Positions 30,195 to 34,062 of a stretch of DNA of 64,000 nt are shown in pieces. Under the pieces are notes generated by a model that was given only the letters and a program-made list of their open reading frames with translations, was not told where the DNA came from and searched no databases. The stretch is from Candidatus Thorarchaeota archaeon (lineage in GTDB: Archaea > Asgardarchaeota > Thorarchaeia > Thorarchaeales > Thorarchaeaceae): contig JAFGAR010000040.1 of NCBI GenBank assembly GCA_016933575.1, positions 133,265-197,264 on the forward strand. Reading direction: 5' to 3'. The first letter of the stretch is position 1; each line of letters opens with the position of its first letter. The position numbers and the translations under genes are program-made.

Positions 30195-31394
30195 TTGGGC
30201 CAGCTGAAACGTACTACACTGCCTTTTACAGCAATTGTTGGTTTAGATAAGTTAAAGCTAGCCCTGATTCTAAACGGAGTGAACCCTCAAATTGGTGGTG
30301 TCCTGATATCTGGTCCAAAAGGTACAGGTAAGACCACTGTTGTCCGTGCTTTGGCTGATTTACTTCCAGAGGTTGACATGATAGATGAATGTCGTTTTGG
30401 TTGTAATCCTGAAAATCCTGAACTCTATTGTGAAGATTGTCGATCACGATTAAACAATGGTCAAAAGTTGAGTTCTATAAAGAGAAAGATGCGTGTCGTC
30501 AATCTACCGTTATCAACAACGGAAGATAGACTGATTGGTTCTCTCGATATCGAGCAAGTCCTTCAACAAGGAATACAGGCTCTAAGACCTGGAATTCTTG
30601 CTGAAGCTCATCAAAACGTATTGTATGTTGATGAAGTGAATCTACTCCCTGACCATCTTGTTGATGACCTTCTGGATGCAGCCGCAACCAAGATCAACAC
30701 AATAGAACGCGAAGGCATCTCAATCTCTCATCCTTCTGATTTTGTACTTATAGGCACAATGAATCCCGAGGAAGGTGAGTTGAGACCTCAGCTATTGGAC
30801 CGTTTTTCTCTTCATGTTGCAGTTGGTACAAATCATACAATCGAGGATCGAATGGAACTTGTACGGAGAAATCTTGCTTTCGAAAGAGACCCTTCCCAGT
30901 TTCATGACGATTGGTCCGCTGAACAAGAGAATCTAAGAATGAAGATCGAACGGGCAAAGGAGCTACTAGACCAAGTCACTCTCTCTGAATCTAATCTCCG
31001 AGCAATCGCTCTTGCTTGCGATGCTCTCGAAGTAGATGGTGTCAGACCGGATATTGTGATCAGTAAAACAGCTATCACTCATGCCGCTCTAGAAGGTCGT
31101 ACTGAAGTGACATTAGAAGATATGAGACTAGCATCTCAACTTGCATTGAGTCACAGAACTCGTAGAGGTGGTCTCCTTGAGCCTCCTTCTTCAGACGATA
31201 TTGATCGTGCAATAACAAAAGCCTCTGAAGTTGCAAAGAAGAACGACCGTCGAAAATCACCAACTGAAGTTCCCAAAGAAGAAGATGAAGAAGGGGAAAA
31301 AGGAGAACGTAGAAGTGGAGGGCGCTTTGGGCGACAGTCTGGATTTGCTCAGTACGGGAGACAAGAGGGCAAAAAAAAACGCCCGGTAAAATAA
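30195..31394 (+). CDS. Mg/Co-chelatase subunit I-like AAA+ ATPase
   Basis: PFTAIVG, GPKGTGKT, LYVDEVNLL, MNPEEGELRPQLLDRF; ends in a charged linker with an A9 run. Confidence 0.92.
   Translation: MGQLKRTTLPFTAIVGLDKLKLALILNGVNPQIGGVLISGPKGTGKTTVVRALADLLPEVDMIDECRFGCNPENPELYCEDCRSRLNNGQKLSSIKRKMRVVNLPLSTTEDRLIGSLDIEQVLQQGIQALRPGILAEAHQNVLYVDEVNLLPDHLVDDLLDAAATKINTIEREGISISHPSDFVLIGTMNPEEGELRPQLLDRFSLHVAVGTNHTIEDRMELVRRNLAFERDPSQFHDDWSAEQENLRMKIERAKELLDQVTLSESNLRAIALACDALEVDGVRPDIVISKTAITHAALEGRTEVTLEDMRLASQLALSHRTRRGGLLEPPSSDDIDRAITKASEVAKKNDRRKSPTEVPKEEDEEGEKGERRSGGRFGRQSGFAQYGRQEGKKKRPVK
31371..31379 (+). other. Predicted -1 frameshift site (A9; A_AAA_AAA)
   Basis: 0-frame stop 4 codons later; -1 frame open from here through 32869. 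Confidence 0.7.
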
Positions 31395-32869
31395 GAAACC
31401 CTCAAGGAGATCCCATCAAAGGCACTATCTGTGCTGTGATGATGGTCATGATTTTTTCATATTTTCTTTGGATTATTGTCAGTCCAATCAACTGGTTGTT
31501 TGGCTATTGGATTCTCCAATTTCCACCAATTCATGTTGTTATTATCGATACGATTGTTTTTGCGCCTCTCATGTGGCGACTTGTTCGTAAATGGTTGGAA
31601 GTAATGACCCGCAGGAAAAGTGGTCCTACGGCAGGGATTGACACACTAGAACCTGGCAAAGCGCAACCTGAATCTGGAGATGAATGGGGATTAGCTACTC
31701 GTCCATATACTCCAGAAAAACCTAGTCTGATCACTGGACCCAAATCTGATATCCGTGATTCTCCATTTGGTTTGGACAATGGTTTCTTTGTGAAGTCTCC
31801 TGACATTGACACTGGAGAAGAATTGTTTGACACAGAGAAATTAAGGCGTCGAGCCATTATTCGTTCTCGCGTGACTTCAGGAGGTTGGATTCACAAAAGA
31901 GTCAGTTCAAGGACAATGGGTTCTCTGAAAGGTTCTGACACAATGAAACATGGTAGACCTATTCGTTCAAGGATACCTAGTAGAGAGATTAGCAATATCC
32001 ATCTACCATCTACAATCATGGCCGCAATTTCGAGAAGTGGTCGGTCAGATGAATTTCCAATTATAATCAGCAGGGAGGATGTCCGTGAAAGTGTCTTTAC
32101 CGGGAAGACACCTCTTACAATCATTCTAGTGATTGATGTCAGTCTATCCATGAAAGGAAGCATGGATGTGGTCCGACAATTCTTAGAACGAATTGAGAGT
32201 GAAACGAGAGGTTCCAAGGATCGGACTGGAATAATTGCGTTCAAAGATAGTGGAGCTGTCGAAGTTCAGGCACCTACGACAAATTGGAATAAGATCTATA
32301 GAGCATTGGGTCGTCTAAAGGTATCTGGCTTAACACCACTTGCTGAAGCTCTCAGAAAGGCGATGGAAACAATCCGGCGAGAACGAATGCGAAGCGACAA
32401 TATTGAACCGCTGATAATTGTCGTTTCTGATTTCTCTCCAAATATCCCCCTTGCCCAATCTGTAGGACCCGGACACAGTCAGTATACACCAGTTCAGGAC
32501 CTGATTCGGACCTCTCGAATAATCCGAAAGGCGAAGGTTCGACTTGCTGCTGTCAATGTTAATCCTGAGCAAGCAAAATGGCCTAAGTTTCTGAAACGCC
32601 CTTATCATGAAGCATTAGAACTAGCAACAATGCTCAGGACCAGAAAAGAAGGTCTTGATGATCCAATTGAAACTATTCTTAGTGTTGATGAATTTCGAAA
32701 GACATTTGGAGCGTATCTGGTCGCTAGAACTGCTGGTGGTCGTGCCTATCTCTCTCGTGAACTACTCAGAGAAAAATCAATACTCGGTACAATTCTAAAT
32801 ACAGCTCAATCGAAGTCTCGTTTAGACATAGCCCAACTACGAGAGGTTGATTCATACCTTCCGAAATAA
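31379..32869 (+). CDS. ChlD-like C-terminal part: two TM helices plus vWA domain, likely translated by -1 frameshift
   Basis: MIDAS DVSLS, GLTPLAEAL, VVSD; ChlD-like GRPIRSR...IHLPSTIMAA...REDVRE; hydrophobic N-terminal pair. Confidence 0.85.
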   Translation, partial: TPGKIRNPQGDPIKGTICAVMMVMIFSYFLWIIVSPINWLFGYWILQFPPIHVVIIDTIVFAPLMWRLVRKWLEVMTRRKSGPTAGIDTLEPGKAQPESGDEWGLATRPYTPEKPSLITGPKSDIRDSPFGLDNGFFVKSPDIDTGEELFDTEKLRRRAIIRSRVTSGGWIHKRVSSRTMGSLKGSDTMKHGRPIRSRIPSREISNIHLPSTIMAAISRSGRSDEFPIIISREDVRESVFTGKTPLTIILVIDVSLSMKGSMDVVRQFLERIESETRGSKDRTGIIAFKDSGAVEVQAPTTNWNKIYRALGRLKVSGLTPLAEALRKAMETIRRERMRSDNIEPLIIVVSDFSPNIPLAQSVGPGHSQYTPVQDLIRTSRIIRKAKVRLAAVNVNPEQAKWPKFLKRPYHEALELATMLRTRKEGLDDPIETILSVDEFRKTFGAYLVARTAGGRAYLSRELLREKSILGTILNTAQSKSRLDIAQLREVDSYLPK

Positions 32870-33051: not shown

Positions 33052-34062
33052 ATGCTACCGGGCAAAGTACCAGCAGAAATTCTACAGAGTATTGTGTTTT
33101 CACATCTTGGAAAAAGTGATCCCTCAGTAATCTTAGGCCCGGGACTAGGAGAAGACGCCTCCCTCATCCAAGTTGGTGATCAAATCATTGTTGCTGCAAC
33201 AGATCCAATTACAGGATCCGTGGAGGATTTGGGGTGGCTTGCAGTGCATGTTAATGCGAACGATATTGCAACTTTCGGAGTCAAACCTAGATGGTTTCTT
33301 GCAACGATTATGCTTCCCAAGGGCTTCAAGACGAGTGAACTGCAAAAGATAATGCTACAAATTGATAGCGCCGCCAAAGCGCTTGATATTGCTGTGGTCG
33401 GAGGTCATTCCGAAATTACAGAGAAACTTGAACAACCTATTATTGTAGGTTTTATGATGGGTCTCACTAAGGAAGGTCAGTATGTAACATCAAGCAGTGC
33501 ACAGCTCAGTGATGCCATTATTCTCACCAAGACTATAGGTATTGAGGGTACTGCAATACTAGCAGCAGAAGGGAAGAAGTATCTCTCTAAACATCTTTCT
33601 AAAGAGACTATCCAAGCAGCCCGTGATTTGCGAGAGCAAATAAGTGTAGTCAAGGACGGAGTTGTTGCTTTCGAAACCGGTTATGTTCATGCGATGCATG
33701 ATCCAACAGAAGGTGGTCTCTCTGGTGCGATTCATGAAATGTGTGATGCTAGTGGTCTGGGATTTGAGATTAATTTTGAAAAGATTCCGATAAGTGAACC
33801 TACAAGAGAAATCTGTGAATTACTTGAAGTGAATCCTCTCGAATTGATTAGTAGTGGTTCTATGATTATTAGTTGTGACTTGGAAAATACCAATTCTGTA
33901 ATTCAATCTTTAGAATCTAATGGAATCCAGGCAACAATGATTGGCACACTGATTGAGGATCCTCACCATCGGAAAATTCTCAAAGCTGGTCAAGTTAGCG
34001 ATTTAGCGAAACCTGATAGCGATGCTCTTTGGGAGGCTATTAAAAAAATCAATCCGCCATGA
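33052..34062 (+). CDS. AIR synthase-related (PurM/HypE/ThiL superfamily) protein
   Basis: GEDAS, TDPITG, NANDIA, GGHSE, MHDPTEGG. Confidence 0.88.
   Translation: MLPGKVPAEILQSIVFSHLGKSDPSVILGPGLGEDASLIQVGDQIIVAATDPITGSVEDLGWLAVHVNANDIATFGVKPRWFLATIMLPKGFKTSELQKIMLQIDSAAKALDIAVVGGHSEITEKLEQPIIVGFMMGLTKEGQYVTSSSAQLSDAIILTKTIGIEGTAILAAEGKKYLSKHLSKETIQAARDLREQISVVKDGVVAFETGYVHAMHDPTEGGLSGAIHEMCDASGLGFEINFEKIPISEPTREICELLEVNPLELISSGSMIISCDLENTNSVIQSLESNGIQATMIGTLIEDPHHRKILKAGQVSDLAKPDSDALWEAIKKINPP

Follow-up and report, generated by a model that had tools for sequence, protein, structure and literature searches.

Known AAA+/vWA chaperone pairs include RavA/ViaA and CbbQ/CbbO, and frameshifted genes of the chlD type were reportedly treated by Antonov in 2020. 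Further pairs of this kind are NorQ/NorD (PMC9976466), CoxD/CoxE (PMC3471820) and CobS/CobT (bioRxiv 10.64898/2026.10.09.757910). Recoding at poly-A sites in chlD-type genes (fs-chlD, the 'magnesium chelatase' cluster) has been published and tested in Escherichia coli (PMC3711429, PMC9227772), with cassettes from this cluster producing 63%, 40% and 10% frameshifting in that host for runs of eleven, nine and seven adenines (A11, A9 and A7) respectively (PMC3711429). Slippage on adenines also occurs in dnaX, through a -1 frameshift on A_AAA_AAG in E. coli and through transcriptional slippage on an A9 run in Thermus thermophilus (PMC3711429). The locus studied here lies at positions 30195-32869 on the forward strand of a 64,000-nucleotide stretch of DNA (the window) from a Candidatus Thorarchaeota archaeon (assembly GCA_016933575.1, contig JAFGAR010000040.1), where the open reading frames (ORFs) for a ChlI-type AAA+ ATPase and for a vWA domain protein very probably constitute, to judge from comparison of their sequences, one recoded gene. 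An earlier, sequence-only reading of the window had cited programmed frameshifts giving both I and D subunits from chlD genes as a precedent, and the literature on that cluster agrees.

The zero-frame ORF (ORF1, 30195-31394) starts at a TTG and encodes a ChlI-type AAA+ ATPase of 399 amino acids, with the Walker A motif GPKGTGKT read in its translation at residues 40-47 (30312-30335). Its 3' end reads GGC AAA AAA AAA CGC CCG GTA AAA TAA. The A9 run within GGC AAA AAA AAA C (31371-31379), read as the recoding site, is followed four codons later by the zero-frame stop (31392-31394), which overlaps an ATA codon of the -1 frame, the Ile of ...KIRNP.... This -1 frame is open from approximately 31311 and reads ...QKKTPGKIRNPQGDPIKGTICAVMMV... 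across the gap into the vWA ORF (ORF2), for which an ORF caller places the start at GTG 31436 and which ends at 32869. A -1 shift on the run would join 395 residues to the 496 codons of the -1 continuation (31379-32869, including the stop codon), giving a predicted long product of 891 amino acids. The end of ORF1, the position of the run, the open -1 frame and the lengths of the two products all emerge from this direct reading as the sequence-only reading had given them. No other homopolymer of at least eight bases is present in the 64-kb window, in whose long ORFs AAA accounts for only 55% of lysine codons.

ORF1 matches AAA_5, AAA_lid_2 and Mg_chelatase in Pfam, TIGR02030 in NCBIfam (E 6e-119) and solved ChlI structures (PDB 6l8d, E 9e-103); it aligns with positions 2-350 of TIGR02442, and ORF2 with positions 401-613 of the same model. 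As ORF1 is the only ChlI-like gene in the source genome, both ring components would come from this locus. We put a probability of roughly 0.8 on there being a single gene of the ChlI/ChlD superfamily, recoded by slippage on the A-run into a soluble AAA+ short form and a membrane-anchored AAA+-transmembrane (TM)-vWA long form, the client of which is not of the CobN/ChlH type; this was also the core of the sequence-only reading, and the comparative data support it. ORF1 additionally carries, shortly after the Walker A region, an insert with four cysteines (CRFGC...C..C, residues 66-82; window positions 30390-30440), which may form a small metal-binding knuckle.

Conservation of the run, and of the frame relation that it sets, supports this interpretation. 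Orthologs of the vWA frame were found in 72 of the 87 class genomes searched and in 15 of 17 genera, at 54-82% identity, and 15 of the 16 genera of the family that were searched hold the gene. The junction was read in 62 species-level genomes of the family, all of which have between seven and eleven adenines at the same place (A9 in 44, A10 in 12, A11 in 4, and A8 and A7 in one each). The two reading frames stand in a -1 relation in 55 of these genomes (A9 in 43, A10 in 8, A11 in 3, A7 in 1), which span 15 genera; in five they are in frame (A10 in four, A11 in one) and in two the relation is +1. Four of the five in-frame junctions can each be set beside a -1 junction that has one A fewer and, around the run, almost no other difference (L004 versus L005, L044 versus L040, and L029 and L070 versus L032), while the fifth, L061, differs from L060 and L065 also in the bases 3' of the run. 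These natural in-frame versions have open frames of 893-913 amino acids, and one fused database protein has 880. In some species the -1 relation is retained through compensating changes (GGT CAA... with A10; A11 with an added G). Synonymous sites are saturated between species, the proportion of synonymous differences (pS) being approximately 0.8 against approximately 0.15 for nonsynonymous ones (pN), which marks the vWA frame as being under purifying selection. Since the run is strictly kept in one of three frame relations, it can hardly be an assembly artefact or neutral. The sequence-only reading had made its case depend on homologs keeping the run and the -1 frame and not starting the vWA ORF independently; the run and frame are kept in most species, and in most out-of-frame homologs no start codon precedes the conserved peptide RNPxGDPIKG.

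Individual junctions depart from the common form. In the genus of loci L054 (genome G065) and L051 (G066), there are two slippery sites in series, an A9 followed by CCA AAA AAA TAA at the stop; in the sister species the A9 has been lost (AAG AAA AAG AAA) and the A7 heptamer alone is left, the relation still being -1. Of the two +1 loci, L002 (G017) and L059 (G063), one is an A8 and one an A9 from just upstream of which a G has been lost. They could produce the long product only by a different slip, deleting one A or adding two, or they may be errors or decaying copies. Within genus g25, 9 of 17 genomes, some of them 88-92% complete, gave no match to the gene, which seems to be dispensable there.

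Downstream of the run, the -1 frame encodes two hydrophobic segments. Helix 1 (fused residues 411-431; 31424-31486) has a Kyte-Doolittle score of 2.44, and helix 2 (fused residues 439-464; 31508-31585) one of 1.6-1.8, in windows of 19 residues; AlphaFold2 models both as helices, the second over ORF2 residues 32-59, with predicted local distance difference test (pLDDT) scores of 76-84. Helix 1, which is conserved in relatives, begins four codons 5' of the first GTG or ATG, and an Arg/Lys-rich flank (RLVRKWLEVMTRRK) follows helix 2. As both flanks of the hairpin are rich in lysine and arginine, the likely arrangement is N-in/C-in, with the ATPase and the vWA domain both facing the cytoplasm. The hydrophobicity profile and the model agree with the two helices that had been placed right after the shift site by the sequence-only reading, and, the hairpin being encoded 3' of the run in the -1 frame, the membrane tether would be limited to the frameshifted product, as had likewise been claimed. 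The linker that comes next (31613-32119) has no Pfam domain and many residues that are invariant in the alignment of relatives, and is modelled as mostly disordered (pLDDT below 50 at ORF2 residues 60-126 and 144-189). The vWA domain itself (32120-32575) matches PF13519 and PF00092 and has a confident AlphaFold2 fold; its MIDAS motif (for metal ion-dependent adhesion site), DVSLS (32135-32149), has the DxSxS pattern intact, with D234, S236 and S238 invariant in the alignment. A Foldseek search with the ORF2 model returned generic vWA folds alone, NorD included.

One competing explanation is that of two separate genes, the TM-vWA protein being started at a GTG or ATG inside helix 1, or by termination-reinitiation. 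Gene callers do annotate 'VWA domain-containing proteins' of 492-513 amino acids, an ATG ATG at the start of helix 1 is conserved in most relatives, and nine loci have a GTGA stop/start overlap. However, the approximately 12 codons 5' of the ATG ATG show the evolution of a coding sequence read in the vWA frame: over the 57 nucleotides from the zero-frame stop through the first vWA-frame ATG, variation summed by codon position is 1.65, 0.71 and 6.47, falling mainly at third positions, and the peptide RNPxGDPIKGTIC is conserved in relatives. No ATG, GTG or TTG is available upstream of RNPxGDPIKG in 42 of the 53 out-of-frame loci, and in nine more the sole candidate is a GTG created by a TGA zero-frame stop. 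The -1 codon overlapping the stop, read in 58 loci, is ATA in 27, GTA in 18, GTG in nine and something else in four; altogether it is ATA, GTA, ATT, GTT or GTC in 49, and being so variable it is not a conserved start codon. Furthermore, the onset of helix 1 precedes the ATG, no Shine-Dalgarno-like motif could be seen by eye at a working distance upstream of the ATG start, and the fused in-frame relatives and outgroups mark the long protein as the functional unit. Because the start-less stretch evolves as coding sequence and 42 of 53 loci offer no start, both independent initiation of the vWA ORF and an assembly error appear unlikely, and two separate genes would be an unlikely account of the locus as a whole. 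An error of homopolymer sequencing or assembly, or the decay of a once fused gene into a pseudogene, would be in keeping with the origin of all the sequences from metagenome-assembled genomes and with the in-frame A10 versions, but 55 species genomes, each assembled separately, agree in the -1 state, some of them with compensating changes, and ORF2 is free of stops over approximately 490 codons with pN far below pS, so that this explanation is scarcely credible. Phase variation at the level of DNA, in which cells would switch the long product by gaining or losing an A in a hypermutable run during replication, has in its favour that DNA polymerase, too, slips on poly-A tracts (PMC3711429), that run length varies from A7 to A11 between species, and that besides the -1 state five in-frame and two +1 junctions are seen, with a single A in the run separating four of the in-frame ones from the closest -1 junction read. 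Contrary to free switching, 55 of the 62 consensus sequences are in one and the same of the three frames; moreover, the in-frame state is common to two related species of genus g25, one with its run interrupted by a G, and is therefore inherited there rather than flickering. Phase variation is consequently an improbable explanation, though it does not exclude slippage during expression.

The remaining alternative accepts both products and takes them for the I and D subunits of a true Mg or Co chelatase of class I, with CobN or ChlH encoded elsewhere. It draws on the fact that the best NCBIfam matches are to TIGR02442 ('putative cobaltochelatase'), BchI-ChlI and BchD-ChlD, as well as on the strength of the match to ChlI structures. 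All of these NCBIfam scores are nevertheless below the curated cut-offs: against 779.45 bits for TIGR02442, the in-frame fused homolog L004 scores 568.8 and the outgroup L021 549.9; against 466.95 bits for TIGR02030 (BchI-ChlI), ORF1 scores 397.1 despite its likeness to ChlI structures; and against 499.55 bits for TIGR02031 (BchD-ChlD), the fused L004 scores 300.8. The search for the large subunit family PF02514 (CobN/ChlH) gave no match in the source genome or in any of 87 class genomes (24 of high quality), as opposed to matches in 5 of 14 control genomes searched alongside; the lack of a chelatase H or CobN gene near the locus, noted in the sequence-only reading, therefore extends to the genome and to the class as sampled. 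The linker contains a TM hairpin, unlike that of the TIGR02442-type homolog of genome G029, a soluble protein of 682 amino acids with no TM helix, and no tetrapyrrole genes are present among the neighbours scanned. By these comparisons the locus does not encode an ordinary class I chelatase, and an undetected partner elsewhere is a very improbable rescue. Scores for the MoxR-class models are also below their 27-bit cut-offs (AAA_3, PF07726, 20.7; bpMoxR, PF20030, 23.5), and the locus may work like the MoxR/vWA systems without being a member of them.

Homologs outside the family bear on the ancestral form of the protein. Three homologs from other Asgard families are single in-frame ORFs of 876, 889 and 900 amino acids, laid out as an AAA+ module, then two to four TM helices at the same place, then a vWA domain. 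Read as DNA, none of the three has an A-run at the junction, the equivalent lysine patch (KKK) in one being spelled AAG AAG AAA. Because other Asgard families encode it as a single in-frame ORF, the long membrane-anchored protein is, by this comparison, the functional unit. In the Thorarchaeia family the slippery run appears to be derived, and its absence from the three TM-type Asgard homologs outside the family suggests that the site arose independently of the published fs-chlD. A cluster search of 1.8 billion representatives returned approximately 25 clusters, at 50% identity, with the same layout and lengths of 770-1060 amino acids; they share a Walker A motif near residue 40, two to six TM helices at around residues 370-560 and a C-terminal vWA domain, a pattern into which the 891-residue product fits. 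Their named sources are Thor-, Prometh- and Hodarchaeota and Bathyarchaeota, and they are annotated merely as 'AAA family ATPase', 'ATP-binding protein' or 'VWA domain-containing protein'. A wider proposal, to which we give slightly less than even odds, is that these proteins form an undescribed Asgard and Bathyarchaeota family of membrane-tethered ChlI-type AAA+/vWA proteins having nothing to do with tetrapyrrole metal insertion, and that in Thorarchaeia the lysine patch beside TM helix 1 became a poly-A site independently of fs-chlD, allowing one gene to supply a free motor and an anchored motor-adaptor in a ratio set by the length of the run.

Direct support exists for the anatomy of the locus, for the conservation of run and frame, for a start-less stretch that evolves as coding sequence, and for the lack of CobN in the class genomes searched. 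Several observations weigh against the interpretation as a recoded gene with two products. In outgroup genome G035 the TM form is fused, its junction lacks an A-run, and no second gene is close to the ChlI type, a weak AAA+ match (E 1e-7) apart; the short product is therefore not needed in every case. In the nine loci in which a GTG overlaps a TGA stop, termination-reinitiation could be permitted. All the genomes compared are metagenome assemblies, and support for both predicted products comes from sequence. Two metatranscriptomes of the same study yielded no matching contig, and no RNA run is listed with the stretch. RNAalifold, applied to 17 junctions, predicted no more than one helix of 6 bp (-3.4 kcal/mol), which covariation hardly backs; folds of the 45 nucleotides 3' of the run in 60 loci had a mean z of -1.0 and inconsistent shapes; and no conserved stimulatory structure at the canonical spacing of 5-9 nucleotides was present among the junctions folded. 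Contigs derived from the reads of the probable source run gave no match to the locus, and those of a second sediment run provided two short matches, one of them reaching no further than 31366, short of the A9.

Candidates for a stimulator of frameshifting were considered individually. A CUCC-GNRA-GGAG hairpin abutting the run is present in part of the genus only, and a hairpin containing GGUGAUCC approximately 19 nucleotides downstream is confounded with the codons for GDP. The GGGAG element to which the sequence-only reading had drawn attention does lie 10 nucleotides 5' of the run (31356-31360), but relatives have other letters at this place, and it was rejected as a Shine-Dalgarno-like stimulator. 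The lack of a conserved structure at the canonical spacing and of a conserved GGGAG would thus disfavour a classical stimulated frameshift. Any run of at least nine adenines holds an A_AAA_AAA heptamer in every phase, hence the phase of the run is uninformative as to mechanism. Transcriptional slippage would be favoured by the runs being nearly always of at least nine adenines and by the tolerance of in-frame and +1 states, and ribosomal slippage by the species keeping only CCA AAA AAA TAA, a phased heptamer at the stop; the two may act together.

How such a gene might work can be outlined in terms of these two products. Standard decoding would yield the soluble 399-residue ChlI-type ATPase. 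In a fraction of expression events, slippage on the A9, whether the ribosome slips by -1 on A_AAA_AAA, RNA polymerase inserts one A, or both occur, would yield the 891-residue protein, comprising the same AAA+ module, a two-helix membrane hairpin, the conserved linker and the MIDAS-bearing vWA domain. As ChlI/ChlD, CobS/CobT and the MoxR/vWA chaperones suggest by analogy, the short and long products probably co-assemble into AAA+ rings, in which the efficiency of slippage would determine the number of membrane-tethered vWA arms, and recoding would accordingly set the ratio of soluble motor to anchored adaptor. At the membrane, such a machine would have a client other than a chelatase subunit of the CobN/ChlH type. 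We infer the synthesis of two products, their ratio, topology, co-assembly and function from the features described above.

The locus is flanked throughout the family by threonine synthase, a PurM/HypE-like gene and SurE. In the window, a gap of 182 nucleotides separates the vWA ORF from the next gene. The PurM-superfamily gene (HypE/SelD/ThiL-like; window positions 33052-34062) lies 3' of the locus family-wide and is below all NCBIfam cut-offs; it is lacking at the three outgroup loci read, for which the flanks are partial. Gene neighbourhood was rejected as a clue to function, the whole block being syntenic in the family and the neighbours of Asgard homologs outside it being unrelated, and therefore no functional link to the PurM-superfamily gene can be claimed.

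These results bear on annotation, as in approximately 60 Thorarchaeota species the locus would be called 'AAA ATPase / Mg-chelatase ChlI' plus a separate 'VWA domain protein', when the main long product of the recoded locus is very probably a membrane protein. ChlI/ChlD-like genes in uncultured archaea have been taken as hints of chlorophyll or B12 chelation, and those in Bathyarchaeota metagenome assemblies as possible chlorophyll synthesis (PMC7110647). Given a class lacking CobN/ChlH as sampled and a protein that is membrane-anchored, the chelation reading should not be carried over to the Thorarchaeota locus, and as some Bathyarchaeota homologs are TM-containing AAA+-vWA fusions, the chlorophyll inference (PMC7110647) may need a second look. 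The natural series of runs from A7 to A11, in -1, in-frame and +1 states across 15 Asgard genera, could reveal whether run length tunes the product ratio, and could tell ribosomal from transcriptional slippage in the Thorarchaeota lineage. Genus g25, with its genomes lacking the gene, would be useful for co-occurrence analysis.

Among described systems, ChlI/ChlD (BchI/BchD) is close in sequence and layout: the AAA+ module is very close to ChlI, and the long product has the ChlD order of AAA+, linker and vWA. The linker of ChlD is acidic and proline-rich; here a TM hairpin replaces it, no ChlH was found in the genomes searched, and both products have one and the same AAA+ module, that of the long form not being a degenerate copy. 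The likeness to fs-chlD extends to the genetic arrangement, with a ChlI-type AAA+ module, a poly-A site at the domain boundary and a vWA domain usually encoded in the -1 frame; a single gene gives a short and a long subunit, and there are relatives fused in frame. The features by which fs-chlD genes are recognised are found at the Thorarchaeota locus, namely AAA+ and vWA/MIDAS in two frames and an A-rich junction, in the -1 relation in 55 of 62 cases. Unlike fs-chlD, the Thorarchaeota gene has a two-helix membrane hairpin in its linker, through which only the long product would be anchored, no CobN/ChlH accompanies it in the class genomes searched, and its scores are under the TIGR02442 cut-off. 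While the principle of recoding has already been published, a membrane hairpin that makes anchoring conditional on recoding, and the absence of the large chelatase subunit from the class as sampled, are new in relation to the literature searched, in which no description of either was found.

The parallel with dnaX lies in the logic of expression, two AAA+ products with a common N-terminal ATPase module (tau and gamma in dnaX) being made from one gene by slippage on an A-run, a logic that applies equally to in-frame and out-of-frame long forms. Zero-frame reading gives the long form of E. coli dnaX; at the Thorarchaeota locus that form usually comes from the shifted frame, and the two families and their functions are unrelated. 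In terms of mechanism, the locus can be compared with the AAA+/vWA pairs, in which the partner of an AAA+ ring is a vWA adaptor with a MIDAS, which docks onto that ring and engages the client, and several of which act on membrane or metal-cofactor enzymes. The Thorarchaeota ATPase differs from these in being of the ChlI rather than the MoxR type, in having motor and adaptor joined in one polypeptide through a membrane hairpin, and in having no client gene linked to the locus among the neighbours scanned. By analogy, the recoded gene most likely specifies a membrane-tethered AAA+/vWA remodelling or cofactor-insertion chaperone, comparable in principle to NorQD, CoxDE and CobST.

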